A DNA stretch of 64,000 nucleotides from an uncultured Planctomycetales bacterium (GCA_964468745.1 CAYXVY010000140.1:5945-69944); one strand, 5' to 3'. Counted from the first letter of the stretch, positions 2,575 to 35,845 are shown. Translations and numbers: made by a program. Notes: generated by a model from the sequence alone, not told the origin.

Positions 2575-3351
2575 ATGAATGAGCGGTCACTGCTCTGCGT
2601 GGCGCATCCGGGACACGAGCTGCGCGTCTACGGCTGGCTGGCGCAAGCGCGTCCCATCGTGTGCGTCGTCACCGACGGTTCGGGACGCTCGGGGCGCTCG
2701 CGCATCGAGGCCACACGCGAGACGCTCCTCGAGACGGGGTGCGTCGTCGGGCCCGTTTTCGCGCCGCTCACCGATGCGGATGCCTATCGCGCCGTCACCA
2801 CGGCCGACGCCGCACCGTTCATCCGCATCATCGACGACCTGGTCCGTACGATCGTCGAATGTGACATTCGATGCCTCGTGGGGGACGCCGCCGAAGGATA
2901 CAACCCGGCCCACGACGTCTGCCGCCTCATCCTCAACGGCGCCGGAGAAGCGTGTCGGCGGAGGGGGCATGCGCTGCGAAACCTCGAATTTCCCCTGTTC
3001 GGCGATCCCGCCGCGTGCCCCGACGCGCTTCGCTCGCAGGCCGTCGAATTGCGCCTCAGCGAGGCAATGTTCGAGGCGAAGCTCAAGGCGGCGCGACGCG
3101 AGGCGGATCTCGGCGTCGATGTGGACCAGGCGCTGCGCGAGGCGGGCGCCGACGCTTTCCGCTGCGAAGTCCTGCGGCCCTGCCTCACCACGGGCCCGAC
3201 TGACGGACTCCCGGACGCACCGACCGTCTACGAGCGATACGGCGAGGGGAAGGTGGCGGAAGGCAAGTACGCGACGGTGATCCGGCGACGTGAGCACGTG
3301 CTTCCCTTGGCGGCCGCCCTATGGCGTCACGCGGAGAGCGCCGGCCCATGA
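2575..3351 (+). CDS. PIG-L / LmbE-family N-acetylglucosaminyl deacetylase-like protein
   Basis: ORF 2539..3351(+). LLCVAHPGHELRVYGW near the N-terminus resembles the AHPDDE motif of PIG-L/LmbE deacetylases. The start is uncertain (2539 or 2575). The stop overlaps the next start (ATGA at 3348-3351). Confidence 0.5.
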   Translation: MNERSLLCVAHPGHELRVYGWLAQARPIVCVVTDGSGRSGRSRIEATRETLLETGCVVGPVFAPLTDADAYRAVTTADAAPFIRIIDDLVRTIVECDIRCLVGDAAEGYNPAHDVCRLILNGAGEACRRRGHALRNLEFPLFGDPAACPDALRSQAVELRLSEAMFEAKLKAARREADLGVDVDQALREAGADAFRCEVLRPCLTTGPTDGLPDAPTVYERYGEGKVAEGKYATVIRRREHVLPLAAALWRHAESAGP

Positions 3352-5426
3352 GCCCGCTGCGCGTCCTCATCACCAACATCACCCTGGCCACGCGGACCGG
3401 CACCGAGTTCTTCGTCCGCGATCTGGCGCACGGCCTCAAGGAGGCCGGCCACCTCCCGATGGTCTACACGCCTGCGCCGGGCTCCGTCGCCGACGAGAGC
3501 CGCGCCGAGGGGATCGCGGTGACGGACGACCTCACACGGTTGCCGGAGCGCCCCGACATCATCCACGGCCACCATACCCTGCAGACCATGGAGGCCGTCG
3601 TGCGCTTTCCCGGGGTGCCGGCGATCTTCGTCGCCCACGACCGCCTCGTCTGGCACGACGCGCCGCCCCTGCACCCGCGCATCCGTCGCCATGTCGCCGT
3701 CGACTACAACTGCCTCGATCGGCTGACGATCGACGCGAAGATCGCGGCGGACCGCACGTGCGTGATTCAAAACGCCGTGGATCTCCGAAAATTCCGCCCG
3801 CGCGATCCCCTCCCCCCGCGCCCGCGGCGGGCCCTGCTCTTCAGCAATTACGCCACGGAGGAGGGTGTTGCGGGGGCCGTTCGCGACGCGTGCGCGCGAA
3901 GCGGCATCGCCCTCGACGTCGCGGGTCAACGGCTGGGAAGCGTTTGCGAGCACCCGGAGTCGGTGCTGGGCGGCTACGATCTCGTGTTCGGGAAGGCGCG
4001 TTGCGCGCTCGAGGCGCTCGCCGTCGGGTGCGCGGTCGTGGTCTGCGATTTCCGCGGAGTCGGAGGTCTCGTGACGCCGGTCGACTTCACGCGCATGCGT
4101 CGCCTCAACTTCGGCATGCGGTTGCTCGTCGAGCCCGTAAGCGCGGAGGTGATCGCGCGCGAGATCGGGCGCTACGATCCGGCGGCCTGCACCGAAGTAA
4201 GCGCCGCCGCGCGGCGCGACGCTTCCCTGGAGGGTCAGGTCGCGCAGTTCGTGCGGCTCTACCACGACGTTCTCGCGGAACCGGCGCCGACTGGGTCGGA
4301 AGCGGAGGCCGTCGGGCGTTACCTCGCTTCCCTTATGCCCGCCTGCACGGAAATCGCCGTGCGCGCCGGCGACGGGCTGGCGGGGAGCGTCATCCATCCG
4401 CGCGCCAACCCCGCGCCAGACGAACGTGCGGCCCTGGAGGCCCAGATTGACGCGATCCGCAACTCTGCCGCGATGCGTGTGCGGGATCGCCTGCTCTCGA
4501 TGCCCGGCGTCGGCCCCGTCGCGCTCTACCTCGCCCGCTGGCTCTCGGGAAAGCATGCAAGCACCGGGCTGCGCCATCCGATGCCCGTCATCGTTGGGGT
4601 CCCGCGCTCGGGGACAACGCTCCTGCGGTTCATGCTCGACGCGCACCCGCTGCTGGCGATCCCTCCCGAGACGGGCTGGCTGCCGGAGGTCGCGAAGATG
4701 AAGCCGACGGGCAACGGTCCCGAGGCGCTCCTGAAGACGATCGCCGATCCCCCCAACTGGTCCGACTTCAAGCTGACGCGAGGAGCGCTCGAGGCGGCGC
4801 TGCGGGCCGTGCGGCCGTTCACGATCAGCGACGGCGTGCGCGCCTTCTACCGGCTGTACGCGCTCCGCTTCGATAAGCCGCGCTGGGGCGAGAAGACGCC
4901 GGGATACGGCCTGCACATGCTCGGCATCGAACGCGTGCTCCCGGAGTCGCACTTCATCCACCTCATCCGCGATGGACGCGACGTGGCCGCGTCCGTGCGC
5001 GGGCTGCCGTTTGCGCCCGGAAATACGATGGAGTCGATCGCGAACGATTGGTGCCGTCGCATTCGCGAGACCCGCGCGCAGGCGCGCCGCTGTCGGCGCT
5101 ATCTCGAGATTCGGTACGAAGATTTGATCCTCAAGCCCGCCGAGACCGTCCAGAGCGTGTGCACATTCATCGATCTCGTCTACGATCCCGCCATGCTCGA
5201 GTACTACCGGCGAAGCCGGGGACGCCTGATGGAGCACGAGGCGGGCGTCGCCCCCGATGGCCGCCCGATCACCAAGCAGGAACGCATCGAGAATCAGCGC
5301 TTCACGATGCAGCCGCCCGATGCTGCTCGGATCGGTCGCTGGCGGCAGGCTCTGAGCGCCCAAGAGATCGCGGAGTTCGAACGGGTCGCGGGACCGCTGT
5401 TGCGCGAACTCGAATATGCCAGATAG
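3348..5426 (+). CDS. Bifunctional glycosyltransferase (GT4-like, N-terminal) fused to a PAPS-dependent sulfotransferase domain (C-terminal)
   Basis: ORF 3321..5426(+), probable start MSPLRVLITN at 3348 (translationally coupled ATGA). The N-terminal ~320 aa have GT-B/GT4 features. The C-terminal ~270 aa carry the sulfotransferase 5'-PSB motif (IVGVPRSGTTLLRFML), 3'-PB motif (IRDGRDVAASV) and the typical WCRRIRE...RYEDLI region. Confidence 0.75.
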   Translation: MSPLRVLITNITLATRTGTEFFVRDLAHGLKEAGHLPMVYTPAPGSVADESRAEGIAVTDDLTRLPERPDIIHGHHTLQTMEAVVRFPGVPAIFVAHDRLVWHDAPPLHPRIRRHVAVDYNCLDRLTIDAKIAADRTCVIQNAVDLRKFRPRDPLPPRPRRALLFSNYATEEGVAGAVRDACARSGIALDVAGQRLGSVCEHPESVLGGYDLVFGKARCALEALAVGCAVVVCDFRGVGGLVTPVDFTRMRRLNFGMRLLVEPVSAEVIAREIGRYDPAACTEVSAAARRDASLEGQVAQFVRLYHDVLAEPAPTGSEAEAVGRYLASLMPACTEIAVRAGDGLAGSVIHPRANPAPDERAALEAQIDAIRNSAAMRVRDRLLSMPGVGPVALYLARWLSGKHASTGLRHPMPVIVGVPRSGTTLLRFMLDAHPLLAIPPETGWLPEVAKMKPTGNGPEALLKTIADPPNWSDFKLTRGALEAALRAVRPFTISDGVRAFYRLYALRFDKPRWGEKTPGYGLHMLGIERVLPESHFIHLIRDGRDVAASVRGLPFAPGNTMESIANDWCRRIRETRAQARRCRRYLEIRYEDLILKPAETVQSVCTFIDLVYDPAMLEYYRRSRGRLMEHEAGVAPDGRPITKQERIENQRFTMQPPDAARIGRWRQALSAQEIAEFERVAGPLLRELEYAR

Positions 5427-5472
5427 GTGCTTCCCGAACGCCGCCGGTTCGCTTGATATACTCCGCTGCTGA

Positions 5473-6185
5473 ATGTCGTCTCCCCCGATCAGGATCTCCA
5501 TCGACGTCTCGCACACGTTGACCCACGGCGCCTCGACGGGGATCCAGCGCATCGTACGGAACGTCGCGCGATGGGCCGCGGAAGCAGGCGAGGACGCGGG
5601 GATCGAGGGCCGCCCCATCGTCGTGGACAACCGCAGATCCCGCCGCCCGCGGTGGCCGTACGCCCACGTCCCCTTCATTTCGGCGATAGTAGCCGGCACC
5701 CCGCTACCCCCGGCATCTGCCGAACGCCCAGGCCAGGGAACAAGAAGCGCGGGCACACGCGCCGCAAGCCGTGCGAATCCTGCAGGCAGTTTATGAACGT
5801 CACGAGTCCATTGCGCTGGCTGGGTACCCAGTGGACGCGGCTTAAAGAAGAAGGCTTGGCCGCACGAACCTTGGCGCTGGGCAAAAAACTTTTGAGACCC
5901 GTGCTGCGCGGCTGCTTCCGCTTTGCCGGTTCACGCCCGCGCCTGAAACGGGCAGGCGCACGGCTGGCAAGAAATTCCGGCCTGTATGGGCCTCTGCATT
6001 CGCTGTACCTGCGCTTATCCGGCAAGGCCCTTCCGGTCGCGATCCTGGATCACGAGCTGCTGTTCAATGACGATGCGGAGGAAACCTCGCCCGCCAGGAT
6101 GCCGGGGAAACTGACCCTCGACGAACTCCTTTCGCGCATTCGCGCGGAACTGGCAGACCCCAAGAAACAGGGACAGCCACGGTGA
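5473..6185 (+). pseudogene. Frameshifted, truncated N-terminal fragment of a GT4 glycosyltransferase; a paralog of the 50311..51639 gene
   Basis: Two ORFs in different frames (5473..5796 and 5793..6185) resemble the N-terminal domain of the GT at 50311..51639 (ISIDVSHTLTHGASTGIQRIVRNVARW vs LIECTASFTSGLNTGVQRVMRGLANN; LLRPVLRGCFRFAGSRPRLKRAG vs LRAVLPSGVARSVIRTLKRAE). No catalytic C-terminal domain follows. The AT-richer block begins near 5800. Confidence 0.4.
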
Positions 6186-7240
6186 CGCCACAAGGTTCCG
6201 CACAATACACTTCGCACCGTGACCCGCTTCGGGTTGCCGTCCTGACAGCCGGACCCTCCACCGGAGAGCAGGGTGGAGCCGAGCGTCTCTATCAAACGCT
6301 GCTCAAGGGTCTGCTCGAGATCGGGTGCAGGGCGGAATTGATCCCGGTATCCGCAGACGAGCGCTCATTCGAGCAGATCGTGAGGAACTACGACCAAGTC
6401 CAACGCATGGACCTCTCGGCGTTCGACGTGGTCATCTCGACAAAAGCCCCGACCTTTGCGGTGGAGCACCCGAACCATGTGATGTACCTCACGCACACGA
6501 TCCGGGTGTACGACGACATGTTCCACGATGCGTTTCCCAAGCCTCATCCCCGGCATTGGGTCGAGCGCGCCAAGTTGCATGCAAGAGACTTCCAGTGCAT
6601 GTCCCGCATCAAGGCGAAGTTCGCTCTAAGTCATGAAGTCGCGAGGCGGCTGTACCGCTGGCGCGGGATCAGGGCCGAGGTATTGCACCCGCCCCTTGGC
6701 GTCCAGGGCTTCCGGCAAGGCGAGACAGGGGACTACTTCTTCCTGCCCGGACGCCTGCATCCTTGGAAGCGTGTCGACCTGCTCATCGAGGCGGTTCGGC
6801 ATTCATCGATGCCGCTGCGTCTCATCATCGCCGGCACCGGCGAAGCGGAGGCAGACCTGAGGCGCCGGGCCGCAGGCGATCCGCGCATCCGATTGGCCGG
6901 GCACATCAGCGATGAGGAATTGTTCGTGTACTATTCCGGCGCGCTGGCCATACCGTTCGTGCCTTTGCGGGAAGACTACGGCTACGTAACGCTCGAAGCG
7001 TTCGCCAGCGGCAAGGCCGTCGTGACGTGCAGCGATTCCGGCGAACCGACCCATTTCGTGAAGCACGGAGAAACCGGCCTTGTCAGTGCCCCGGACGCGC
7101 ACAGCCTGTGCGAATCGCTGGAATGGCTCTTTACCCATCGTGATGACGCCCGGAACATGGGACAAAAACGGGAAGACGCTGCTCGATGGCATGGCCTGGT
7201 CCAAGGTTGCCTCCCGGCTTGTGGACGCCGCGCTGGACAA
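6182..7240 (+). CDS. Glycosyltransferase family 4; C-terminus requires a +1 shift at an A5 run (about 7161-7168) to read the typical GT4 end
   Basis: ORF 6182..7954(+). The first ~330 aa are a good GT4 (RVAVLTAGPSTGEQGGAERLY...EAFASGKAVVTCSDSGEPTHFVKHGETGL). After DDARNMGQ the track frame becomes Arg-rich junk, whereas the +1 frame gives NGKTLLDGMAWSKVASRLVDAAL, a typical GT4 C-terminus. The shift maps to ggacaaaaacggg. Confidence 0.6.
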
Positions 7241-9299
7241 GACGCCCGCAACTCCGCCCGCACCGACAAGAGTCACCGTGCTCGACATGCAACCCATCGA
7301 CCCACCGGTCGGCGGAGGACGGCTGCGCCTGCTCGGTGTCTACCACAACCTTGGCGACAGGGTGGATTGCACGTACGTAGGCTCCTACGACTGGCCGGGG
7401 GAACGGCACAGAAAACACCGGCTGAGCGCCTGCCTCGAAGAAATCGACGTTCCTCTCAGCGACGAACACCACGCCGCGGCGCGGGCTTGGAGCGCCCATG
7501 CGGGCGGCAAGACCGTCATCGACATTTCGTTCGGCAAGCTTGGGAAGCTGTCCACCGAATACCTGGACGCCGCCCGCCGAAATATTCGCGATGCCGACAT
7601 CGTGGTCTTCTCCCATCCCTGGGTCTACCCGCTGGTCGCAGGGGATCTCTCACCGCGTCAGATCGTCGTCTACGACTCCCAGAATGTCGAAGGCTACCTT
7701 CGCGCCCAGTTGCTCGACGAGAGCAACGGGGCCGAGGCCAAGCTGTTGCGGCAGGTGGTCGACGACGAATACCAGCTGGGCTGCCGCGCGGACCTGATTC
7801 TCGCGTGCTCGCACGAGGACCTGCTTCGCTTCCAGCGGATTTACGAGTTCCCGCCGGACAGGATACGGGTCGTGCCGAACGGAGTGATGGCGTTCGCACA
7901 TCCGGTGCCAAGCCGCGAAGACAAGTCGAAGGCAAAAGCCGGACTGAAGCTTGAGAAAGGCCGTCTGATAGCGGTCTTCATCGGCAGCGCCTACGGACCC
8001 AATATCGAGGCCGGAAAGTTCATCATGGAGCACCTGGCGGACACGCTGCCGGACGTCACCTTCGTGCTTGCGGGAGGCGTCGGAGCCGAAGTGCCGGGCC
8101 GCAAGCGCAACGTCATCGTCACCGGCGGCCTGAACGAACAAGAAAAGCTGCGGTGGCTCTCCGCAGCCGACATCGCCATCAATCCCATGTTTTCGGGCTC
8201 GGGCACCAACATCAAGATGTTCGACTTCATGGCGATGGCGTTGCCTACCGTGACCACGGCCACCGGCGCGCGCGGCATCGATACCGGTGGACGTGACGCA
8301 TTGATCATCGCGGAACCCAGCACAGCGGCGTTCACCGATGCCATTCAGCGGCTCCGCGACGAAGAGACGCGAAACCGGATGGGCCGCGAGGCGCGTGCAT
8401 GCGTCGAGGAAGGCTACGCCTGGGAACGCATTTCCGGCCTTACAGGCCGGATGCTCGTGGCCAGGCATGCGCTGGCCGGACAGCCGCGCCCCATGTTCTC
8501 CGTGGTGATCCCCAGTTACGAGCGCCACCCCAAGCTGGATACGTTGATGGTCAGCTTGCAGAAACAGGTGGAAAGGGACTTCGAGGTCATCATCGTGGAC
8601 CAGACCGCGTCGCGCTGGCCTGGCGCGGAGAAAGAGTACGGATTCCCGTGCCTCTACTACCCCTCTTCGGTCAAGGGCGCGGTCCGGGCGCGCAACACCG
8701 GCGCCATGCTGGCGCAGGGCAGCGTAATCGCGTTCACCGACGACGACTGCATGCCGACCGAGGGCTGGCTGGCCAATGCCCGCAAGTACTTCCGCAGCCG
8801 CCGCGTGGTGGGCGTCGAAGGCATGATCGTATCCGACCACCTGGGCGAGTCCGATTGGCGCCCCGTCACCAATGTCGGCTTCGAAGGCGCCGGGTTCATG
8901 ACCGCCAACCTGATGGTGCGCAGCGACGTCTTCCAGAAACTCGGCGGCTTCGACCTGCAGTTCGACCGCCCGCACTTTCGCGAAGACACCGACTTCGGCT
9001 GGCGCATGACGGGCGCCGGCTTGGTGCCGTACGCGAAGGACGTCACCGTTTTCCATCCGGCCCAGCCCCGCTCCCTGGAGCGGGAATCAGCGGGTACTCG
9101 CGCCCGTCTCTTCCAGAAAGACGCATTGCTGTACCGCAAGCATCCGGACTCTTACCGACGGCTGTTCATGAAAGAGCGCCATTACCGGATCACGCCGGGG
9201 TTCAGGGAAAACGTGCTTGCCGGATTCTGCGCAACGGGGGACAAGATGCCGGAATGGATGGAGAAGCTCATCGGGAATGAACCTGATCCCATGTGCTGA
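7080..9299 (+). CDS. Bifunctional glycosyltransferase: GT4 domain (N-terminal) + GT2 domain (C-terminal); true start uncertain (possibly the ATG at 7287, or fused to the upstream GT4 via frameshift)
   Basis: GT4-like region (RIRVVPNGV...FIGSAYGPNIEAGKF...INPMFSGSGTNIKMFDFMAMALPTVTT) is followed by a GT2 domain (MFSVVIPSYERHPKLDTLMVSLQKQ...FEVIIVDQTAS...FTDDDCMP). No stop separates it from the upstream GT4 in the shifted frame. Confidence 0.7.
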   Translation: MSVPRTRTACANRWNGSLPIVMTPGTWDKNGKTLLDGMAWSKVASRLVDAALDKTPATPPAPTRVTVLDMQPIDPPVGGGRLRLLGVYHNLGDRVDCTYVGSYDWPGERHRKHRLSACLEEIDVPLSDEHHAAARAWSAHAGGKTVIDISFGKLGKLSTEYLDAARRNIRDADIVVFSHPWVYPLVAGDLSPRQIVVYDSQNVEGYLRAQLLDESNGAEAKLLRQVVDDEYQLGCRADLILACSHEDLLRFQRIYEFPPDRIRVVPNGVMAFAHPVPSREDKSKAKAGLKLEKGRLIAVFIGSAYGPNIEAGKFIMEHLADTLPDVTFVLAGGVGAEVPGRKRNVIVTGGLNEQEKLRWLSAADIAINPMFSGSGTNIKMFDFMAMALPTVTTATGARGIDTGGRDALIIAEPSTAAFTDAIQRLRDEETRNRMGREARACVEEGYAWERISGLTGRMLVARHALAGQPRPMFSVVIPSYERHPKLDTLMVSLQKQVERDFEVIIVDQTASRWPGAEKEYGFPCLYYPSSVKGAVRARNTGAMLAQGSVIAFTDDDCMPTEGWLANARKYFRSRRVVGVEGMIVSDHLGESDWRPVTNVGFEGAGFMTANLMVRSDVFQKLGGFDLQFDRPHFREDTDFGWRMTGAGLVPYAKDVTVFHPAQPRSLERESAGTRARLFQKDALLYRKHPDSYRRLFMKERHYRITPGFRENVLAGFCATGDKMPEWMEKLIGNEPDPMC

Positions 9300-9453
9300 A
9301 CTTTTCAGGAAGACGCGTTCAACAAGCACACAAAAGCAATCATCGCCGGGCAGGGCGGCCCCTACTTGCGACGCGCGACGAGCGCCGATCACCGCGGGAG
9401 AGAGTCGATGAATCCGTCGACCCAGACGGCCCGAAGCGGTCCTCGCGACGCCG

Positions 9454-11361
9454 TCACAGCGGCTGCGGCGCCGCACGCGCGCGTGCGGGCGCTGGGTCGC
9501 GCGCGGAGCGACCCTCCTCGATCGAACGGACACGGTCACGGATCCGGCGCGCCGTGTGATCCCACGTGCGCTCAGCGAGCACCACGGCCGATGCGGCGCG
9601 TCCCTTCTCGCGCGCCTCGCCCGGATTCTCGGTGACATGCCGCATGAGGCGGCGTAGATCAGAGTAGGACGGCTCCGCCCAATTCGCGCCGGCATAGTAC
9701 GGACACTTCGCCCGCGCCGGAACGACCCCCGTGATCGGAAGCGGGTACGCGATGTCCGGCCCCAGGAAATCGCGGGGTCCGCTCCAGTCCGTGGCGATGA
9801 CGGGGAGTCCGCAGGCCATGGCCTCCAACACCGGCATCCCCCACCCCTCTCCCCGCGTCGGCAGGACGAAACAGTCCGACGAGCGGTAGAGTGCCCCCAT
9901 CTGGTACGTGGGCACCATGTCGTTCACGGAGAGGATCACGCGCCCGCCGCGCGCATCGAGGCGGAGCGCCGCGATCTGCGTGTCGATGTCCACGTCCGGA
10001 TCCCGGTTGAACGTTTTGCACAGCAGCGTCACCGGCTCACGTGCACGGAACTCCTCGTTGAACGCGCGCAGCAGCAGCTCCGGCGCCTTGCGCTCTCCCC
10101 ATTCAAAGACGGACACAAACGTGTACTCGTCCCGCACGGGATAGCGCGCGATCCCGGGATGAAAGTAGTCCGCATCCACTCCGAACGGGATGACATGGAT
10201 GGGTCTCGTCACCCCGCTTCCCTTGAATGTTCCAATGTTGAACGTCGACGGGACCCAGACTTCGTCCATCAGGTTGGCCTGTCGCACCCAGTCGTTCGGG
10301 ATCCGGTCCGTCTCGAGCATCGAAAACCCGATCCGGTACGAGCCTGTGTTGCGCGAAAAGACGCCGCCCTCCCCGTAGACGACCTCGATTCCTCCCGGGC
10401 GAATCCGACGGCCGCGGATGAGGCCGAGCCGACAGGAGGAGGCCTCGGCGGATTGCGGAGCGGGACCAGATGTTCCCTCGCCGTACACGTACTCGTACCG
10501 GACCTCGATGCCGAGGCGGTCGAGCGCGAGCACCATCGCGCGGGAGCTGATCGCGTATCCTGTTTCGGGTTCGAACAATGATCTCCAGCCAATCGTCGCG
10601 GAATGCCCGCTCTTCTCGAGCTTCTTCTGCCACTTGTCCTTGAAGATCCGCTGCGACTCCAGGAACATCGGACGGAAGTCCACGCCGTTGACGCGCGTGT
10701 TCATGTTCTCGTGATGCAGCACGGTGACCCGGCCGCAGCACACGGTGCGGTAGCCGTGCTCGCGCGCCCGCAGACAGTAGTCGGTGTCTTCGAAGTAGGA
10801 AAAGTAGTCGGTGTCGAGCAACCCGACCTTCACGATCGCCTCGCGCTTGATGTAGCTGCACGCGAAGACCACCCCTTCCACGTCGCGGGTGCCGGCGTAC
10901 TGGTTGATGTCCTTCTCGCCCCCGCCGATCTGCTGCCCCCACCAGCTGTCCAGCGGCATGAACGTTCCCGCATGCTGGAGCGTGCCGTCGGGGCGTGCGA
11001 TGCGGCACCCCACGACGCCGATGTCGGCGGACGCGTGCGCCGTCTCTTGCAGCAAGTTCAACCAGTCCGGTTGGTGGATCTCGGTGTAGTTGCTGAGCAG
11101 GACAATGTCGGACTCCGGATCCGCCGCCTGGATCCCCTGATTGCACCCGCGCGCAATGCCGACGTTCGTCGCGTTCAGGACGAGATGGATGTCGGGCATC
11201 GCTGTCAGATGGTCGACGGTTCCGTCCTTGCTGCCGTTATCGACAACGATGATGCGGACGGCCGGATGCACTGTGTTGCGGCGCAGCGTGTCGAGACAGC
11301 GGCGCGTGTACTCGAGGCCGTTCCACGTCAGGATGACGACGCTGACGGGGCGCGGCTTCAC
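9454..11361 (-). CDS. Bifunctional glycosyltransferase: GT2 domain (N-terminal) + GT4 domain (C-terminal)
   Basis: N-terminus VSVVILTWNGLEYTRRCLDTL...IIVVDNGSKDGT...DTDYCLRAREHGY is GT2. C-terminal half (...CFVLPTRGEGWGMPVLEAMACGLPVIATDWSGPRDFL) is GT4. Confidence 0.8.
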   Translation of the reverse strand: MKPRPVSVVILTWNGLEYTRRCLDTLRRNTVHPAVRIIVVDNGSKDGTVDHLTAMPDIHLVLNATNVGIARGCNQGIQAADPESDIVLLSNYTEIHQPDWLNLLQETAHASADIGVVGCRIARPDGTLQHAGTFMPLDSWWGQQIGGGEKDINQYAGTRDVEGVVFACSYIKREAIVKVGLLDTDYFSYFEDTDYCLRAREHGYRTVCCGRVTVLHHENMNTRVNGVDFRPMFLESQRIFKDKWQKKLEKSGHSATIGWRSLFEPETGYAISSRAMVLALDRLGIEVRYEYVYGEGTSGPAPQSAEASSCRLGLIRGRRIRPGGIEVVYGEGGVFSRNTGSYRIGFSMLETDRIPNDWVRQANLMDEVWVPSTFNIGTFKGSGVTRPIHVIPFGVDADYFHPGIARYPVRDEYTFVSVFEWGERKAPELLLRAFNEEFRAREPVTLLCKTFNRDPDVDIDTQIAALRLDARGGRVILSVNDMVPTYQMGALYRSSDCFVLPTRGEGWGMPVLEAMACGLPVIATDWSGPRDFLGPDIAYPLPITGVVPARAKCPYYAGANWAEPSYSDLRRLMRHVTENPGEAREKGRAASAVVLAERTWDHTARRIRDRVRSIEEGRSARDPAPARARAAPQPL

Positions 11362-11804
11362 GAGGGCGTGCCCGTGGATTCCCCGCCGGTCGGGGTGATC
11401 GGGCCCGCCGAAGCGCCGTCGAGCTGCTTACGCAGCGTCGTCACCTCCCGGCGAAGGTCGTCGTTGCAGGCGGCCAGCTCCCGGACTGCCTCGAGGAGGT
11501 TGAGGTTGACGCGGCGCTGATCGCGGAAGAGCAGTTCGAAAAGCCTGAGGAACCAGCCGCGGAGCACGCCGCTGCGGTTGAACGGAAACCGGTTCAGCTG
11601 GCGCGGCAGCTCGGTGCGAACACGCGCGCCATGCTCCGCCTGCGCAAGCAGGCCGAGGATCCGCCAGCGATCCGCGGGCAGCCGCAGCACGGCGGAGGAG
11701 GCGCCCGACGGCAGGTCTGCCTCGACGCGATGCGCCCGGGTCGCGTCCCGGATCGCCGACATCAGGTCCTCGACATCCCGTTGGTTGCCGGCAAGGCCGT
11801 TCAT
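11358..11804 (-). CDS. Hypothetical protein with a predicted C-terminal coiled coil, co-transcribed with the GT2+GT4 gene
   Basis: ORF 11358..11804(-). Stop overlaps the start of the downstream GT gene (ATGA). The C-terminus LLEAVRELAACNDDLRREVTTLRKQLD is heptad-like. No recognisable catalytic motif. Confidence 0.4.
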   Translation of the reverse strand: MNGLAGNQRDVEDLMSAIRDATRAHRVEADLPSGASSAVLRLPADRWRILGLLAQAEHGARVRTELPRQLNRFPFNRSGVLRGWFLRLFELLFRDQRRVNLNLLEAVRELAACNDDLRREVTTLRKQLDGASAGPITPTGGESTGTPS

Positions 11805-12382: not shown

Positions 12383-14284
12383 CTACGTGGCCTGCTCCGC
12401 CTCCAGCCGCCGGAAGTGCGCCATGATCTGCGCGACGCACGCATCCACGTCCGCCTTGTCCGTGCGCACGACGAGATCAGCCTTCTCCGGCGCCTCGTAT
12501 GGCGCGTCGATCCCCGTCACCGACTTCACCTGCCCAGCCCGCGCCTTCTTGTAGATCCCCTTCGGATCGCGCTCCTCACAGACCGCGAGCGGGCAGTCGA
12601 CGAACACCTCGACGAACTCCCCCTGCCGCAGCCCGCCCCGCACGCGGTCGCGGTCCGCCTTCATCGGCGAAATTAGTGCGACAAGCACGATGAGGCCGGA
12701 GTCGCCGAACAGCTTCGCCACCTCGCCCACGCGACGCACGTTCTCCGCCCTGTCTTCCTCGCTGAACCCGAGGTTCGCATTGAGGCCGTGCCGCAGATTG
12801 TCTCCGTCGAGCAGGTACGTCTGGTATCCCGCGTCGAACAGCCGCCGCTCCAGCGCGACGGCGAGCGTGGACTTCCCCGACCCCGAGAGACCCGTGAACC
12901 AGAGGACGCGCCCATGATGGCCGGTGCGCCGCGCGCGCTCGTCCCGCGAGACCTGGCCCGACACGAACGAGATGTTATGGCTCTTGACGCCCGACAACTC
13001 CGAGCGCAGGTCCTTCGTCGCGGCCGTCGAGATGATCCCTCCCCCCTCGATCCGCGCCCCCGCGTGCAGCACGAAACGGCCGAGCTGCGGCACCCCGCCG
13101 AAGTCGTCGATCGCGATCGGCCGCTGCGTCTCGATCGTGACCTCCGCGATCTGGTTGCGCGCCACCGACTGCGCCTCGACGGCACCGAGCGTCGCAACGT
13201 CCACCACCTGGTGGATCTTCACGACGCGGCAGATGACTTCCTGCGACGTGATCTTCAGCAGGTACTCCTTGCCGGGCATGAGGTCCTGTTTCCCCAGCCA
13301 GAACAGGCGCGCGTCGAATCGGTCCGCCTCGACCGGCGCGTTCTCGAGATGCGACGCGATCTGCCCGCGCTCGACGAAGAGCTGCGCGTCGAGCGTGATC
13401 CCGACCGAGTCGCCCGCGTGCGCCTCCGTCACCGGCGGCGCGCTCCAGCGCTCGATCGTCTTGACGAAGCCGGTCTTGTTCCACGGCGAGAACACGAGCT
13501 GATCCCCGACGCGAAGCGTGCCGGACTCGATGCGGCCGGCGAAGATGCGCGTCGTTTCGTTCTGGCGGTAGACGTCCTGGATCGGGAAGCGCAGCGGGCC
13601 GTCGGTGATGGGGACGCGCGACTTGAAGCCGTGCATCGCCTCGGCCACCGTCGGGCCGGTGTACCACGGCATGTCCGTCGCGCGCGCGACGACGTTCGCG
13701 CCCGCCTTCGCGGAGATCGGAATGAACACCGATTTGCCCGCACCGGTTGCCTTCAGGTAGGCCCCGTATTCCTTCTCGATGTCGCGGAAGGTCTGCTCCG
13801 ACCACCCGACGAGATCCATCTTGTTGACGAGCACGGCGACCTGGTGGAGCCCGAGCAGGCGCAGCAGCAGCGCGTGACGGCGCGACTGCTCGCGGATCCC
13901 CTCGCGCGCGTCGACGAGGACGAGCGCGGCGTCGGCCGTCGAAGCCCCCGTGATCATGTTCTTCAGGAATTCTTCGTGCCCGGGCGCGTCGATGATGACG
14001 AACGGGCGTCCGTTGACGTGCATCCAGACGTGCGCGGCGTCGATCGTGATCCCCTGGTCGCGCTCGGCCTGCAGCGCGTCGAGGGCGAACGCGAACTCGA
14101 ATTCGAGACCGCGCTTCTCGGAGATCTTCCGGATCTGTTCGAGCTTCCCTTCCGGGAGCGAACCGGTGTCGTGCATGAGCCGGCCGACGAACGTCGACTT
14201 GCCGTGGTCGACATGGCCGAGCATCACCACGCGGACCGGTGCGGTCGTGGGGGTGACGGCCTTTTCTTTGGTAGTCACGGGCAT
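12383..14284 (-). CDS. cysNC: Bifunctional sulfate adenylyltransferase subunit 1 (GTPase, CysN) fused to adenylylsulfate (APS) kinase (CysC); NodQ-like
   Basis: N-terminal GTPase motifs ([23 protein letters not shown]) of CysN/EF-Tu-like. C-terminal APS kinase ([39 protein letters not shown]-loop kinase signature). 633 aa. Confidence 0.9.
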
Positions 14285-14557: not shown

Positions 14558-15367
14558 TTACATGTATCCGGAGGTGCGAAGACGCTCGAACGCGTCCTCC
14601 GATTCCTGGTCCTGTGCTCGGCCCGATCTCTCGCTCGTCTTCGTGCGCCGCAGCTCCTCGACGATCTCCGCGACGCTCGTGGCGGTGGACTCGATCATGC
14701 CGGTGCACGGCGCGCATCCGAGGCTGCGGTAGCGGCGTCCGTCCTTCGCGTAGTAGAGGTCGATGATCGGGATCGACTCGCGCTGGATGTACTCCCACAC
14801 GTTGAGTTCGGTCCAGTGGAGCAGCGGATGAATGCGTATGTGCGTGCCGGCCGGGAATTCGGTCTGGTACTGGTCCCAGAATTCCGGGGGCGCGTCGCCG
14901 AAGTTCCACGTGAGGTTCTTGTCGCGCGGCGAGAAGTAGCGCTCCTTCGCGCGCGTGCTCTCCTCGTCGCGGCGGATGCCGAGGAGCAGGCCGTGATACC
15001 CCTTGAGTTCGAGGACCTGCTTGAGGCCCTCCGTCTTGAGCGAGGAGCAGCAGACGACGCGGCCGAGGGTGTGGTTCATCCCGCCGGCGAGGGCGGCGAC
15101 GTTCTTGCCGACCACGAGGTCGAGCCCCAGCTCCTTCGCGACGCGGTCGCGGTACTCGATCATCGACGGGATTTTGTAGGTCGTGTCGACGTGGATGACG
15201 GGGAACGGGACGGCGCCGAAGAATGCCTTGCGGATGAGCCAGAGCAGGACGGTCGAATCCTTGCCGATCGACCAGAGGCACCCGAGGTTTTTCAGCTTCG
15301 CGCGCGCCTCGCGGATGATGTAGACGCTCTGCGCTTCGAGGGCGTCCAAGGGGTCGCGGTGAGCCAT
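14558..15367 (-). CDS. cysD: Sulfate adenylyltransferase subunit 2 (CysD; PAPS reductase-like ATP sulfurylase small subunit)
   Basis: ORF 14558..15367(-). [12 protein letters not shown] (PP-loop), LGIRRDEE, and overall CysD architecture. The ATG is preceded by TTGAGA-n17-TATAAT-n11. Confidence 0.9.
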
Positions 15368-16872: not shown

Positions 16873-17628
16873 ATGCCCTCCTGGTTCGAGCTCCTGCGCG
16901 CGCTCGTCGCGAAGGACTTCAAGGTCCGCTACAAGAGCACGGCGCTGGGGTTCGTGTGGTCGATCGCGAACCCGGTCATGTTCGGCCTGACGTTCTACGT
17001 GGTCTTCGAGAACGTCTTCCGCGGCGGGCAGAAGAACTTCCTCGTCTTCCTGCTCGCGGGGATGTTCCCGTGGCAGTGGTTTGCGAGCACCGTGGGCGGC
17101 GCGCCCGGCACGTTCGTCGGCAACGCGGGCCTGATCAAGAAGGTCCGGTTCCCGTGGATGCTGCTCCCGACGGCGGCCCTTGTCAGCAACCTCCTGCACT
17201 TCCTGCTGGCGCTGGCGGTGGCCGTCCCGCTCCTCGGGATGAAGGGGATCTGGCCGACACCGGTCTGGCTGATCGGCATTCCGGCCCTGCTCCTCATCCA
17301 GGGGGCGCTGACACTGGGAGTCGCGCTGCTGATCGCATCGATCAACGTCATCTTCCGCGACCTCGAGTACATCACGCAGATCGTGCTGCAGTTGGTATTC
17401 TTCCTCACGCCGATCTTCTACTCGGCAACGGCGCTGCCGGAGGGGACGCGGTCGATCCTGCGCTGGAATCCGATGTGCTACGTGATTCCGGCGTGGCAGG
17501 AGCTGGTGCTGGAGGGCCGCATGCCCTGGCAGACGGCGGGGATCGGCGCGGCGATCGCGGCGGCGACGTTGCTGATCGGCTACGGAGTCTATCGACGGAT
17601 GGAGTGGCGGCTGGCGGAGTCGCTATAG
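16873..17628 (+). CDS. wzm: ABC-2 type polysaccharide export permease (Wzm/TagG/KpsM-like)
   Basis: 251 aa, 6 predicted TM segments, ABC-2 family signature region (FVWSIANPVMFGLTFYVVF...). Confidence 0.8.
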   Translation: MPSWFELLRALVAKDFKVRYKSTALGFVWSIANPVMFGLTFYVVFENVFRGGQKNFLVFLLAGMFPWQWFASTVGGAPGTFVGNAGLIKKVRFPWMLLPTAALVSNLLHFLLALAVAVPLLGMKGIWPTPVWLIGIPALLLIQGALTLGVALLIASINVIFRDLEYITQIVLQLVFFLTPIFYSATALPEGTRSILRWNPMCYVIPAWQELVLEGRMPWQTAGIGAAIAAATLLIGYGVYRRMEWRLAESL

Positions 17629-17765
17629 AGACACATGGGTTTTCTAACGCAGAGATCGCTGATTTGTTTTGAGAGCCGGAGAGGCCCATCTCAAAGAGTT
17701 AGTCTGCGGTCTCTCCTTGTCCTCTTCTGCGCCCTCGGCGTTATTCGGGAAGATTGGGCGCGATC

Positions 17766-18527
17766 ATGAGTATCACGGCTGACCCCGCGGTTGAATTCCA
17801 CGACGTCGTCAAACGCTTCCACCGCGTCCACGCCCCGATGGGATTGAAGTACGCGATGCTGCATCCCGCGGAGTTCGTCCGCGTGTGGCGCTCGGCCCCG
17901 ACCTTCACGGCGCTCGACGGGGTGTCCTTCACGGTGAAGCGCGGAGAGTCGCTGGGGATCTGCGGCCGAAACGGCAGCGGGAAGAGCACGACGATGACGT
18001 TGATGGCGGGCGTAATGCGTCCGACGAGCGGCCGCGTGGTCGTGCGCGGGAGGATCGCGCCGCTGCTGGCGCTCGGCGCCGGTTTTCATCCGGACTTGAG
18101 CGGGTCGGACAACATCACGCTGAACGGGCTGCTCCTCGGCCTGTCCCGGCGGGAGATCGCGGAGCGTCGCGAGGCGATCATCGAGTTCGCCGGGCTGCGC
18201 GAGTTCATCAACGAGCCGATGCGCACATACTCCTCCGGCATGTTCATGAGGCTGGGGTTCGCGGTGGCGGCGCATACCGATCCCGAGGTCCTGCTGGTGG
18301 ACGAGCTGTTGTCGGTCGGCGACTTCGAGTTCCAGGCGAAGTGCAAGGCGAAGATGCACGAGTTCCGGAAGTCCGGCGTCACGATCGTCTTCGTGAGTCA
18401 CACGGTGGCGGAGATGGAAGCGATGTGCGATCGCGCGATCTGGCTCGACGGCGGGAAGGCGCGCATGGACGGCACGCCGGTCGAGGTGGACAAGGCTTAT
18501 CGCGGCGCGCTGGGGGCGGCGTCGTAG
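17766..18527 (+). CDS. wzt: ABC transporter ATP-binding protein for polysaccharide export (Wzt/TagH/KpsT-like); no C-terminal carbohydrate-binding extension
   Basis: Walker A GRNGSGKST, ABC signature YSSGMFMRLGFA, Walker B LLVDELLSVGD, H-loop. Track ORF starts at 17754 (TTG); the ATG at 17766 (MSITADPAVEFHDV) is preferred. Confidence 0.85.
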   Translation: MSITADPAVEFHDVVKRFHRVHAPMGLKYAMLHPAEFVRVWRSAPTFTALDGVSFTVKRGESLGICGRNGSGKSTTMTLMAGVMRPTSGRVVVRGRIAPLLALGAGFHPDLSGSDNITLNGLLLGLSRREIAERREAIIEFAGLREFINEPMRTYSSGMFMRLGFAVAAHTDPEVLLVDELLSVGDFEFQAKCKAKMHEFRKSGVTIVFVSHTVAEMEAMCDRAIWLDGGKARMDGTPVEVDKAYRGALGAAS

Positions 18528-24749: not shown

Positions 24750-24778
24750 ACCGGCGCGATGTCTGAGCCTGCCGGCGA

Positions 24779-25945
24779 CTACCGTCTGAGCCGCAGCAGA
24801 GCTCGCGTTGTTTCCCCCTCATGGACTGCTTCGCTGAGGATCTCCATGCGGAGTCCAATCGACGCTCCGAGTTTCTTGAAGGCATTCAGATTCCACTCGA
24901 CAAGTGCGCGCGTTCCGCGGGTTTCAGAGACATCCTTCGCACAAAATATATCGGCGAGAATGCGACCTCCATCTCCCATGCACCTCGTGGCGTCAGTTAG
25001 GAGTCCGCGAGACTCATGCGGATAGGTGTGCGTTAGGACGCTCATGAAGAGCACAAAATCGAAGGGTCCTCCAACAATTTCGAGTGGCAGACTGGCGTCC
25101 ATATTCCGCGTGAAGGAAAATGTGGAGCGACTGTAGCGCTGTCTGCAGAAAGCCACAGGCTTTTCCGCGATATCTGTACCGCAGTAGCGCCCCGTCGAAT
25201 CCAAGAAGCTGTGTAGTGGTCGTGTTAACAGCCCTGTTCCGCAACCCACATCGAGTACGCGGGAATTGCGCGCCAATCCAAATTCCATCAACATGCGCAA
25301 CTTGTCGTCGCCCAGTGTGACGAACTGTTCCTCGGACGGAACTCCGACGACCGACCAGTAGTCGCGAGTAAAGTCGGCGTTTTCCCAGACAGTGGCATAT
25401 TCGCCAAAATCGCCAGGCCGCGCTCCAGCGATTTCAACTGTGATCGGTGAGACTCTTGAGCCCCGATCCTTGAACCAGGTAATGTTTTCGTGAACTAAGT
25501 CAAATTCGAGCGTACACAGACTTGGAGTGGCAGGCGCCTGAACTGTCGCGCGAACTAAGACCTCTGCGCCGGAATCAATATCGGTTGGAAAATCGGTCCG
25601 AATCCCGTCATAGACAAGTACTTTCCCGTCTTGTCGCAGCCAATGGTATGCCAGCCGAACGGCATTTGGTTTGTTTCCAGCAGGCCACCGATGGGGAGTA
25701 GCGTTACGAACGCGCACGGGCACTTGAACAATCTCTCCTTCGTGCAGCTTGGCAGGTGCCTCTAGTACGTGGATTTGGGCGCGGTATGCCACGCTGGGCA
25801 TGCTGTCCAGTGGCAAGGTGGGGTCGCCCAACTGCAGTTCTCCTTTTTCTGAGTCCGACTTAGTATCTGAGTTTTGCAGCAGATGCAAGAAGCGATTCGC
25901 CGAGAGCCTTCGAATCTCGCGAGCTATTTCTTCGCCGGTTGACAT
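24779..25945 (-). CDS. Class I SAM-dependent methyltransferase (C-terminal) with a ~190-aa N-terminal domain of unknown function
   Basis: VLDVGCGTGLL (SAM-binding motif I) and downstream motifs (FDFVLFMSVLTH). Noticeably AT-richer than the background. Confidence 0.7.
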   Translation of the reverse strand: MSTGEEIAREIRRLSANRFLHLLQNSDTKSDSEKGELQLGDPTLPLDSMPSVAYRAQIHVLEAPAKLHEGEIVQVPVRVRNATPHRWPAGNKPNAVRLAYHWLRQDGKVLVYDGIRTDFPTDIDSGAEVLVRATVQAPATPSLCTLEFDLVHENITWFKDRGSRVSPITVEIAGARPGDFGEYATVWENADFTRDYWSVVGVPSEEQFVTLGDDKLRMLMEFGLARNSRVLDVGCGTGLLTRPLHSFLDSTGRYCGTDIAEKPVAFCRQRYSRSTFSFTRNMDASLPLEIVGGPFDFVLFMSVLTHTYPHESRGLLTDATRCMGDGGRILADIFCAKDVSETRGTRALVEWNLNAFKKLGASIGLRMEILSEAVHEGETTRALLRLRR

Positions 25946-25982
25946 AGGATCGACGCGCCCGATAAGCTCCGCTGGCGAACGA

Positions 25983-27293: not shown

Positions 27294-27412
27294 CCGCGCT
27301 TACCACGCTTTACTGGCATATCGAAAGTCAACGCCTCCGGACTTCGACGCGCGTACGCGCACCATTTCCTGATTCTGTCTCCGGTCTCCTGAATTCTGTA
27401 TCCTCTCCGCAC

Positions 27413-34501: not shown

Positions 34502-34540
34502 GGCTGAATCGGGCATCCTATCACCGTCGCGCACGAGCCG

Positions 34541-35512: not shown

Positions 35513-35640
35513 TCTCTCAGGCCCTTTTAACGCCGAGAGCGCAGACGCGCTGCAGAAGAGAGCGCAGGTTTGTGGTGGAACGTGGGGCGTGGTCCTTCCG
35601 GAACTTCCGGACAACCGCTGAGCGCGCAGGGGCAAGCAGA

Positions 35641-35845
35641 GGGGTTCCGGGCGCTGAGGTGTCCGCCGCCGTGCGGGCAACGCCCGCACGAGCGGCCACG
35701 CAGAAGCCGTTTCCGAAACGCCCAGCCCTTCTTCGGGAGCGTTTCGGAAACGGCTTCTGCGTGGCCGCGCCCGCGCTACGCGCGGGCCGGCGGACCCGAA
35801 AGAAGCTCTCCGCGCCCCAAGCGACTCCTGTCCTCCTCTGCGTTC
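35641..35845. repeat. Copy 2 of the ~200-bp palindromic structured repeat element; lies between the convergent GT2 and GT2-GT-C genes
   Basis: Perfect 22-bp inverted repeat (gcagaagccgtttccgaaacgc / gcgtttcggaaacggcttctgc, ~35700-35760), loop ccagcccttcttcggga. Arms ggggttccgggcgctgaggtgtccgccgccgtgcgggcaacgcccgcac and gcgcgggccggcggacccgaaagaagctctccgcgccccaagcgact match copy 1 (inverted). Confidence 0.75.

Follow-up and report, generated by a model that had tools for sequence, protein, structure and literature searches.

A probable recent frameshift in a GT4-GT4-GT2 polymerase gene within a polysaccharide locus of a planctomycete MAG

Results

Genes and features of the locus

The window, meaning the whole 64-kb stretch of DNA that was analysed, contains genes for Wzm and Wzt (16873-18527), Gmd, an Rmd-like protein and many glycosyltransferases (GTs). 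RimO places the host, a MAG, in Planctomycetota, and Shine-Dalgarno sites are rare in its genome. The polysaccharide island also carries sulfation genes (sulfotransferases). The features identified at 5473-9299 are listed in Table 1.

Table 1. Features of the region carrying the GT4 stub, the terminator tail and the polymerase gene
Feature	Coordinates	Strand	Basis and remarks
N-terminal GT4 stub, ~55 codons	5473..5640	+	Homology; resident WbpX/WbdA-module-like GT4 gene
C-terminal tail of a WbdD-type terminator	5793..6185	+	130-codon ORF; homology to tails
Module 1 (GT4, GT-B fold)	6182..7166	+	Residues 1-328, frame 2, up to the frameshift; Glycos_transf_1
AAAAA run	7164..7168	+	One-base insertion site relative to the family; putative ancestral CAA AAC (A4)
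Out-of-frame tail	7169..7954	+	262 codons, frame 2, expected ribosomal reading after the shift; stop codon 7952-7954
Module 1 end and linker	7167..7271	+	Frame 0, residues 329-363; orthologue alignment and model
Module 2 (second GT4)	7272..8471	+	Begins VTVLDMQPIDPPVGGGRLR; Pfam Glyco_transf_4, Glyco_trans_1_4, Glycos_transf_1
Module 3 (GT2, GT-A type)	8490..9299	+	DDD motif AFTDDDC, then stop codon; Pfam Glycos_transf_2

The left edge (5473..6185) had been described in the first-pass annotation as one GT4 fragment paralogous to the gene at 50311. The paralogy was borne out for 5491-5631, of which the 47 aa share 36% identity with the N-terminus of the paralogue 50311-51639(-) (E 4e-10/1e-8), but GT4 similarity within 5473-5796 was limited to ~47-69 N-terminal residues, and 5793-6185 is a WbdD-type tail instead. 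The stub matches residues 5-70 of GT4 proteins of 392-448 aa (the 390-450-aa class), with a host-gene-like GC3 of 0.89. Its ORF extends to a stop codon at 5794-5796, while coding signal and homology fade near 5640. No Pfam match to Glycos_transf_1 was found after the stub, leaving the GT-B fold incomplete.

The ATG of the tail ORF overlaps the TGA of the stub ORF (ATGA), and its own TGA overlaps the GTG of the polymerase gene (GTGA). Homologues of the tail form the last ~130 aa of methyltransferase/coiled-coil proteins whose genes lie directly upstream of the polymerase gene at three related loci, L005, L004 and L002 (E 7e-10 to 3e-7); the tail also matches residues 313-385 of WbdD from E. coli IAI1 O8 (33%, E 1e-9). 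Neither Pfam nor NCBIfam domains were matched in this ORF, with no methyltransferase/kinase or coiled-coil part found, and no residual terminator similarity was detected upstream of ~5790 in any frame. At 32-37%, the tail is as divergent as intact tails are from one another at equal polymerase distance. As this divergence is not excessive, the cassette may have been functional in its truncated form, and the term 'decaying relic' would be too strong. On its own, the tail cannot terminate chains or measure chain length.

A single gene interrupted at an A-run

The GTG ORF starting at 6182 (590 aa, frame 2) matches Pfam Glycos_transf_1 up to residue 327 and leaves the homologous frame at the AAAAA of 7164-7168, within GGACAAAAACGGG (7160-7172), which confirmed an earlier observation. 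Frame 0 is uninterrupted from 7080 to 9299 and encodes GT4 and GT2. Deletion of one A in silico produced a single ORF of 1038 codons (6182-9299) with the modules GT4-GT4-GT2. The restored junction (...ARNMGQ followed by NGKTLLDGMAWSKVASRLVDAAL...) was aligned without gaps to orthologues, for example AARMGQNGAALLSNMSWPKVASRLVNAAL, with homology in frame 2 up to residue 328 and in frame 0 from residue 329; the frame change thus does restore the GT4 C-terminus and runs on into the GT4-GT2 part, as first proposed. The third-position GC signal moves from frame 2 to frame 0 between ~7100 and 7200. A stop and a start codon separating two genes had been envisaged as well, and no such pair was found between the parts in the homologous frame; nor was there a stop codon at or just after the A-run. 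The frame-2 translation of 7169..7954 is Arg/Pro/Ala-rich nonsense without similarity to orthologues, and in this segment the GC-rich codon position corresponds to third positions in frame 0 rather than in frame 2.

The Pfam match of module 1 covers residues 181-327 (6.4e-19), and residues 1-328 are 63-72% identical to orthologues, keeping 63 of the 64 invariant columns. The segment 7167..7271 comprises the remainder of the penultimate helix, the last helix with the invariant W339 and L346, and a Pro/Thr-rich linker. Module 3 was recognised at 9.3e-14 and keeps the invariant D853-D855. In the restored protein as a whole, 220 of 222 invariant residues are kept, on both sides of the break, as are 166 of the 174 columns conserved at ≥90%. 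The structural model used was the AlphaFold model of P0002, an orthologue with 71% identity (pLDDT 87.7), in which helices 320-334 and 339-351 are followed by a lower-confidence linker (~352-361) and by strand 362-367, which opens module 2. Residue 328 falls within helix 320-334, ahead of the final helix and the linker.

Fused and split relatives

More than 100 database proteins (1015-1053 aa) are 58-71% identical to the restored ORF over 96-99% of its length, and a single uninterrupted ORF was present at 17 related genome loci (49-71% identity). Judged from these sequences, the family normally has the fused three-module protein, so that the three-domain protein of ~1000 aa suggested initially is correct for the family, and the comparison of orthologous loci that had been proposed gave fused ORFs and a gap-free junction. 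The window copy falls in the fused clade, with 71% identity to L002, and after removal of one A it shows collinear full-length homology, the three catalytic modules and the invariant residues. Clade members at ≥53% identity have a single ORF; because of one extra base, with the frame change at 7164-7168, the window copy does not.

In about 40 more distant relatives, module 1 and modules 2-3 are naturally encoded by two adjacent genes, often in different frames. The natural split lies at residues 347-364, beyond the final helix of module 1, and is marked by a stop codon and a closely coupled start, and the start region of gene 2 coincides with the start of module 2 in the window. In contrast, the break in the window copy lies at residues 328/329.

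The codons found at the site in orthologues were, for example, GGC AAG AAC GGA and GGC CAG AAC GGG, and the A-run was absent from every orthologue whose codons could be read there. The window contains nine A5/A6 runs and more than 130 G/C runs of ≥5 nt. Across its 64 kb, the only same-strand frame break observed was the one at 7164-7168.

The site in a second assembly

The MAG and Logan contig L001 (SRR9952630, 3385 nt) are two assemblies of the same reads made by different assemblers. L001 corresponds to 6334-9718 of the window with 0 mismatches, AAAAA included, and continues across the site unbroken. Logan contigs of the source organism are short (3.4 kb versus 79.9 kb for the MAG contig). 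A scan of JGI metagenome contigs found neither A4 nor A5 alleles. Several frame breaks per gene were observed in Nanopore-type MAG loci of the polymerase family.

Composition and origin of the block

An AT-richer, acquired segment had been proposed from about 5800 to 9300. Bulk GC content is 0.630 at 5800-9299 and 0.650 ± 0.024 over the full set of 3.5-kb windows, 15% of which are as low or lower, and the dip is statistically unremarkable. The block appears GC-low mainly because its left neighbour (3000-5000) reaches 0.70. Third-position values do support the proposal: GC3 is 0.69 in the tail ORF, 0.75 in module 1 and 0.81 in modules 2-3, compared with a median of 0.87 (43 genes), which places the block in the lower tail of the gene distribution. 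The named close relatives of the polymerase are all from Proteobacteria. A Planctomycetota label was absent from all 80 related genome loci. Given the low GC3 and the non-planctomycete relatives in a Planctomycetota host, it is plausible that the polymerase gene and the terminator tail are a foreign cassette; the idea of acquisition stands on these grounds and not on bulk GC.

Discussion

Our favoured reading is that 6182-9299 is one GT4-GT4-GT2 polymerase gene which was inactivated or crippled by a recent A4 to A5 insertion, and we regard this as probable. With one extra A and close relatives that have a single gene of ~1030 residues, an ordinary recent knock-out is the most likely explanation, without any recoding device. 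The lesion would be very recent, as the rest of the gene shows no decay.

The role of the intact enzyme was deduced from its family, its context and the published polymerase-terminator model. It would act in an ABC-transporter-dependent route, as one polypeptide with one GT module per linkage type, assembling a polymer of repeat units, carried on undecaprenyl diphosphate, at the inner side of the membrane. The adjacent WbdD-type terminator would anchor to the membrane through its C-terminal tail and recruit the polymerase. The Gmd and Rmd-like context suggests that the donors are probably GDP-mannose or GDP-6-deoxyhexose, and, judging by the GT families, two of the linkages should be retaining (alpha) and one inverting (beta). 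At its left junction, the cassette would have cut the resident GT4 gene; of the terminator gene, only the 3' end would have been retained. Translation from GTG 6182 is expected to go out of frame once Gln328 has been added, midway through the penultimate module 1 helix, so that the product would lose the last helix with W339 and L346, would gain 262 nonsense residues and would end at 7954, while modules 2-3 would be left without a coupled start site. Polymerase function would then be lost or severely reduced. A split as such is tolerated, given the ~40 relatives with separate polypeptides, and with in-frame starts available and Shine-Dalgarno use rare, modules 2-3 could still be produced in some quantity.

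The main competing explanation, which we consider unlikely, is a consensus error: the organism would have four A's and an intact gene of 1038 aa, and the fifth A would be a sequencing or assembly artefact. An artefact would look much like this, a lesion within a homopolymer in an otherwise perfect gene (220/222 invariant residues), and family members in other MAGs do show frame breaks of the error type. The sequence comes from a MAG, with short Logan contigs and Gmd recorded from NCBI only, a hint of modest coverage, and two assemblies of the same reads could share a mistake. However, two assemblers gave AAAAA with full identity over 3385 nt, and a homopolymer-prone chemistry should also break genes at the >130 G/C runs, so that the absence of another same-strand break counts against an error. 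A run of five A's is short for an Illumina indel error. Pseudogenising mutation and indel error, both named in the first-pass annotation, are thus both still live; the five A's in the second assembly and the isolation of the break favour a real mutation, and the extra base appears to be present in the organism and not merely in the consensus, with loss of polymerase function as the likely result.

A functional split, or fission in progress, is improbable. Module 1 and modules 2-3 would be made separately, the latter from one of the ATG/GTG codons in frame at 7143, 7191, 7278 or 7287, as adjacent genes do at ~40 loci with 39-50% identity. Such starts are present in a genome mostly without Shine-Dalgarno sites, and a 718-aa product from ATG 7143 was annotated by the gene caller. 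The position of the break argues against it, as natural boundaries at 347-364 have a coupled start, whereas this one is inside a helix, deprives module 1 of two invariant residues and burdens it with the nonsense extension. The frame-2 stop lies ~670-810 nt beyond the candidate restart codons, which excludes termination-reinitiation coupling, and the copy belongs to the fused clade. A variant with quite a small chance of being right is that A5 is a fixed, tolerated state, in which the fused polymerase is breaking up into separately translated pieces, as the ~40 distant relatives have already done, modules 2-3 are internally initiated, the tail-only WbdD remnant serves as a scaffold, and chain ends are set by the sulfotransferases of the island instead of a methyltransferase.

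A regulated frame change, by phase variation, transcriptional slippage or a programmed shift (+1, or -2 on AAAAA) yielding a short or a full-length enzyme, is very improbable, and this part of the first-pass annotation was not sustained. Glycosyltransferases of surface glycans are classic phase-variable genes, and tRNA-Lys could formally re-pair at -2 on A AAA A, which would restore frame 0. Useful slippage rates, however, need tracts of ~7-9 nt or more, well above the 5 nt present here, which is one of nine such short runs in the window. The site is not conserved, since orthologues read through it in one frame with other codons, stop codons are lacking both there and immediately downstream, and the Logan contig passes it unbroken. 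The remaining reading, two ordinary genes (GT4 and GT4-GT2) with nothing broken, is suggested by the long overlapping ORFs 6182-7954 and 7080-9299 and is practically untenable, as it was refuted by the junction alignment: module 1 has its homologous end in the other frame, frame 0 has no stop between that end and module 2, and the final 262 codons of ORF 6182-7954 lack both homology and frame-2 third-position GC enrichment.

For annotation, 6182-9299 should be recorded as one frameshifted gene and not as proteins of 590 aa and 718/739 aa, and 5793-6185 as a WbdD-type terminator remnant and not as GT4. The event itself is ordinary, as surface-glycan glycosyltransferases are frequently knocked out. 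What may be of more use is a polymerase family with one fused clade and another in which the split falls at a fixed module boundary, a clean natural experiment on how modules fuse and separate in ABC-transporter-dependent glycan assembly, together with the apparent transfer of a cassette into a planctomycete polysaccharide island carrying sulfation genes.

Comparison with known systems

The GT4-GT4-GT2 family of ~1030 aa is widespread yet uncharacterised. No member reached an NCBIfam equivalog cutoff, and the closest solved structures were those of generic GT4 enzymes, MshA and PimB' among them. WbdA-type multi-module polymerases have one module per linkage type (PMC7685785, PMC11231755), and the C-terminal region of WbdD provides the membrane anchor and the site for polymerase recruitment (PMC11231755). 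The window polymerase may work in the same multi-module way by analogy. WbdA of E. coli O8 and K. pneumoniae O5 is a three-module mannan polymerase and that of O9a has two modules; in E. coli IAI1, WbdA(O8) is encoded right after the wbdD terminator gene in a manCB-wzm-wzt locus, and the window likewise keeps a terminator tail beside the polymerase gene and has wzm/wzt. Orthology to WbdA(O8) was rejected, as the similarity (27% identity over 115 aa, E 0.002) is at the level of fold only; WbdA(O8) has 1213 aa and three GT4-type modules without GT2, unlike the window polymerase, which has a GT2. No DNA-level match to the window polymerase was found in 5,426 E. coli genomes.

The tail at 5793..6185 resembles WbdD-type terminators in its homologous C-terminal region and in a stop/start overlap of the same length, 4 nt, with the polymerase gene, and differs from them in lacking the catalytic domain and the coiled coil. 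A multi-module GT beside a coiled-coil terminator in a wzm/wzt locus was seen in L002, L004 and L005, the gene order in Serratia (L004) being manC-manB-wzm-wzt-methyltransferase(tail)-polymerase-gmd-rmd-GT4-GT4; the window and most related loci contain Gmd and Rmd-like genes. Relatives of the split type (cyanobacteria, Inquilinus, Xanthobacter, Pseudochelatococcus and others) have like modules and also conserve the module 2 start VLDMQPIDPP, but they are only 39-50% identical to the window copy, and their third module is sometimes exchanged. The closest counterparts are the ~1030-aa family members, for example the Methylococcales MAG proteins P0001/P0003 and those of Atlantibacter hermannii (P0019), Citrobacter (P0034/P0039) and Serratia inhibens (L004, 9956-13057). 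They share with the window the same three Pfam modules, a polymerase gene directly downstream of, and overlapping, the coding end of the terminator tail, and wzm/wzt and gmd/rmd in the locus. The window copy differs from them in its one extra base, in an upstream terminator gene reduced to its tail, and in its planctomycete host.

A frameshift in the polymerase gene

The region 6182-9299 is a polysaccharide polymerase gene of three modules (GT4-GT4-GT2), fused in its normal state and broken here by an ordinary frameshift of one base. It is read as two overlapping ORFs: in the first, the Glycos_transf_1 domain reached residue 327 only, and the second carried Glyco_transf_4/Glyco_trans_1_4 and Glycos_transf_2 (Pfam). 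Removal of one A from the AAAAA tract gave one ORF of 1038 codons. The codon-position GC was an independent signal for the frame switch, the GC-rich third position lying in frame 2 at ~6300-7100 and in frame 0 at ~7200-9100, and this was the sole site in the 64 kb where two same-strand coding frames abutted with no gene boundary. The loss of frame at the A-run, as reported in the first-pass annotation, was thus borne out.

Coordinates of the features discussed
Feature	Position	Strand	Remarks
GT4 N-terminal-like domain and sulfotransferase fusion, 701 aa	3321-5426	+	Sulfotransfer_3, 4e-29
Tail ORF, 130 codons	5793-6185	+	Homologous to last ~130 residues of upstream terminators
ORF 1	6182..7954	+	GTG start, 590 aa, frame 2 (ORF map)
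ORF 2	7080..9299	+	Overlaps ORF 1; 739 aa, frame 0 (ORF map)
Frame changeover	7160-7172	+	GGACAAAAACGGG, includes AAAAA 7164-7168
CysNC (sulfate adenylyltransferase/APS kinase), CysD	12383-14284, 14558-15367	-	
Wzm	16873-17628		
Wzt	17754-18527		
GT2 gene	34541-35512	+	Occupies remainder of over-extended 32267-35689 (-)
Gmd, Rmd-like reductase, epimerase	46505-49396		

In a MAFFT alignment of the window with eleven fused orthologues, the restored junction (ARNMGQ|NGKTLLDGM-AWSKVASRLVDAAL; AARMGQNGAALLSNM-SWPKVASRLVNAAL in the database orthologue P0002) was gap-free, and the unrestored frame-2 continuation (KREDAARWHGLVQGCLPACGRR...) matched none of the eleven; on this alignment, the lesion is an insertion of exactly one base. 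The change of frame restored the GT4 C-terminus and ran on into the GT4+GT2 ORF, also as first described. An A-run was not found at the site in any orthologue with readable codons (e.g. GGC AAG AAC GGA, GGC CAG AAC GGG), so AAAAA is a lineage-specific CAA AAC plus one A, and not a conserved slippery site.

Fused and split forms of the family

Database matches to the restored protein numbered more than 100, each 1015-1053 aa long and covering 96-99% of its length at 58-71% identity, with named sources including Methylococcales MAGs, Atlantibacter, Citrobacter, Paraburkholderia, Orrella, Microbulbifer and Salinisphaera. A 718-aa entry with 100% identity was the downstream piece as called on the 79,874-nt contig of the host genome itself. 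Eighty genome loci were fetched, and the match regions were inspected for frame changes and internal stops. A single tblastn HSP was rejected as proof of fusion; the HSP of the cyanobacterial locus L027 held a same-frame stop, and the loci were therefore re-scored by a stop check. The gene was an uninterrupted single ORF at 17 loci (49-71% identity) and two adjacent genes, which may or may not share a frame, at approximately 40 (39-50%). In the two-gene loci the boundary always fell at query residues 347-364, gene 1 stopping just past the final module 1 helix and gene 2 starting a few codons ahead of the conserved VLDMQPIDPP of module 2. The window copy was 71% identical to a fused Methylococcales gene and broke at residue 328/329, which places it in the fused clade and not among the natural two-gene forms. 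A three-domain protein of ~1000 aa, one of the readings initially offered, is the normal state of this family, and the comparison of orthologous loci that had been proposed as a check revealed a fused clade with a single ORF, from which the window departs by one inserted A.

The pattern across loci L002-L066 reads as module-level fusion, fission and swapping. The third module was exchanged in some cyanobacteria, gene 2 of L027 encoding 790 aa with a last module that did not align with the query GT2. This fused-versus-split family is a more interesting by-product than the frameshift itself, which is of low interest. Four loci from MFD-labelled MAGs were broken at several places other than this boundary; two to four frame breaks within the polymerase gene were noted for the MFD-labelled L049, L051, L052, L053 and L058, in contrast to the single break of the window. 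These MAGs were taken to be long-read assemblies, and their multiple breaks look like homopolymer-type assembly error. In L058 the match had a ~0.9-kb gap between query residues 295 and 325.

Age and reality of the lesion

The restored protein retained 220 of the 222 invariant columns in an alignment of 47 orthologues (the two changes being F to L and S to T), and 166 of the 174 columns conserved at 90% or above, on either side of the break. As there was no other decay in the gene, the frameshift must have arisen very recently, unless it is not real. A Logan contig of 3385 nt (run SRR9952630), the product of an independent assembler, was identical to window positions 6334-9718, the five A's included, at zero mismatches; exact-protein look-ups gave this contig only. 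The junction with four or five A's had no match in JGI metagenome contigs. Across the 64-kb window, which contains more than 130 runs of at least five G or C, no further same-strand frame break was detected, and this argues against homopolymer-prone data. A real mutation was considered clearly more probable than a consensus error, and the five-A form probably arose recently in the host planctomycete population, as a null or hypomorphic allele.

Consequence for the protein

P0002 is 71% identical to the restored protein with the same numbering at the site, and three modules can be seen in its AlphaFold model (mean pLDDT 87.7, pTM 0.89). At the end of module 1 are helices 306-318, 320-334 and 339-351, followed by a lower-confidence linker (~352-361) and strand 362-367, which opens module 2; helix 320-334 is thus interrupted by the shift, which follows Gln328. 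On this model, the shift removes the final module 1 helix with the invariant W339 and L346. It appends 262 nonsense residues before the stop at 7952-7954. Since the C-terminal helix of a GT-B fold folds back against the N-terminal half, the loss of the final helix should destabilise module 1. Modules 2-3 would be obtainable only through internal initiation, for which in-frame starts exist at 7143, 7191, 7278 and 7287. None of the four had an SD-like motif, which is not decisive since most genes in the window also lack one; such motifs were present at few genes. With the frame-2 stop hundreds of nucleotides downstream, the termination-reinitiation coupling of the natural two-gene forms is lacking here.

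ALTERNATIVES

A tolerated split, in which both pieces of the polymerase are used, would have a parallel in the relatives that function as two polypeptides, but is unlikely given the nonsense tail and the position of the break (328/329 versus the natural 347-364). Phase variation and programmed frameshifting, which the first-pass annotation had also put forward, were both rejected on their defining tests, as the tract is only 5 nt long, is absent from the readable orthologues and is not adjoined by a stop codon.

A probable acquired cassette and its left edge

The block had been described as AT-richer and acquired. Its bulk GC (0.630 for 5800-9299, versus 0.650 +/- 0.024) was equalled or undercut by 15% of windows, and was rejected as a sign of acquisition because the deviation was not significant. 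Other observations do fit a foreign origin. The GC3 values of the tail ORF (0.69), module 1 (0.75) and modules 2-3 (0.81) lay in the lower tail of 43 genes (median 0.87). RimO shared 75-81% identity with named planctomycete proteins, the host being a Planctomycetota MAG, whereas the named close relatives of the polymerase were all proteobacterial, and no Planctomycetota occurred among the 80 related loci. The low GC3 and this mismatch between host and relatives make ~5790-9300 a likely foreign cassette, horizontally acquired and consisting of the polymerase and a terminator tail. No IS, direct repeats or mobile-element traces were found at the cassette edges, and repeats, promoter-like and terminator-like sites in 5000-9600 were not above chance.

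The lowest-GC stretch of the window was 23900-27400 (0.569), a far stronger compositional outlier than 5800-9299, with a GC3 of 0.57 for each of the genes 24779-25945 (-) and 25749-27293 (+). A second sulfotransferase is encoded there, along with a class I methyltransferase whose N-terminal domain is unassigned; these are candidates for recently acquired chain-modifying or terminating enzymes.

The left edge had been read as a truncated GT4 paralogous to the gene at 50311. This held for 5491-5631 only, which matched 47 residues at the very N-terminal end of the paralogue 50311-51639 (-); a full HMMER scan added matches to the N-terminus of GT4 proteins of 390-450 aa; the GC3 of this stub (5473-~5640) was host-like (0.89). 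The ORF 5793-6185 is instead a WbdD-type tail. Its homologues are methyltransferase/coiled-coil proteins directly upstream of the polymerase in L002, L004 (Serratia inhibens) and L005, and a further homologue is E. coli O8 WbdD, over residues 313-385 (E 1e-9). The C-terminal region of WbdD is a membrane anchor and polymerase recruitment site (PMC11231755). The methyltransferase and coiled coil of the terminator were absent from the window in every frame. The left junction would have cut short two genes, the GT4 gene already in place and the terminator gene brought in with the cassette. The tail was no more diverged from intact tails (32-37%) than these were from each other at equal polymerase distance (29%), so it may remain in use, or may have been truncated only recently. 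Overlaps of 4 nt chain 5473-5796, 5793-6185 and the gene starting at 6182 (ATGA 5793-5796, GTGA 6182-6185), though the first is a gene stub; the GTGA overlap corresponds to the terminator-polymerase coupling also seen in L002, L004 and L005.

A 148-aa ORF at 11358-11804 (-), with its stop overlapping the start of the GT2-GT4 gene 9454-11361 (-), shared 35-42% identity with the first ~130 residues of cyanobacterial terminators such as L027 8248-9996, which consists of an N-terminal region, a long coiled coil and a C-terminal methyltransferase. The ORF has neither coiled-coil repeats nor methyltransferase and, with 5793-6185, makes two 'anchor-only' terminator-like pieces in the island. Perfect tandem repeats occurred in the terminator coiled coils (~14 copies of LQTVDTQLQTTHEH in L027 8248-9996; a QWLQNEWD.AK motif four or five times over in L002 8397-9953). 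If terminators act as molecular rulers, variation in the number of repeats should reset the length of the polysaccharide chain. L027 contains a masked run of N at 7347-7838.

The polysaccharide island

The window is a large polysaccharide island with more than a dozen GT genes, CysNC, CysD, two sulfotransferases, a Bac_transf initiating transferase and a Wzx-like protein. The GT4-sulfotransferase fusion lies just left of the region 5473-9299, and CysNC and CysD lie a few kb to the right of that region; together they suggest a sulfated polysaccharide. No homologue of the fusion was found among the 80 related loci. This sulfation-rich island is likewise a more interesting by-product than the frameshift. 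Host proteins, even Gmd and CysNC, were singleton clusters at 90% identity, and scans found no tRNA or Rfam families in the 64-kb window. The mechanically called minus-strand ORF 32267-35689 (1140 aa) is over-extended, the minus-strand coding signal ending near 34500, and exemplifies the long spurious ORFs of high-GC sequence in the window.

Comparison with known polymerases

Literature searching found no characterised D-rhamnan polymerase of GT4-GT4-GT2 type, and NCBIfam had no equivalog for the polymerase, nor any near cutoff. PDB searches by sequence and by fold gave generic GT4 enzymes only and no close solved structure. The Serratia orthologue had no match in 5,426 E. coli genomes (blastn). 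In Serratia inhibens the gene order is manC-manB-wzm-wzt-methyltransferase-[1033-aa GT]-gmd-rmd-GT4-GT4, the arrangement of an O-polysaccharide locus that depends on an ABC transporter and has a polymerase-terminator pair.

The WbdA of E. coli O8 has been described as a three-module mannan polymerase (PMC7685785; PMC11231755). WbdA(O8) of E. coli IAI1 has 1213 aa and three GT4 modules, whereas the window family is GT4-GT4-GT2, and the two proteins shared 27% identity over 115 aa (E 0.002), a similarity at the level of the fold only. Identity of the polymerase with WbdA(O8) was rejected, as there was no homology past the GT4 fold. The family may thus be regarded as a functional analogue, which would work like WbdA, yet is not WbdA.
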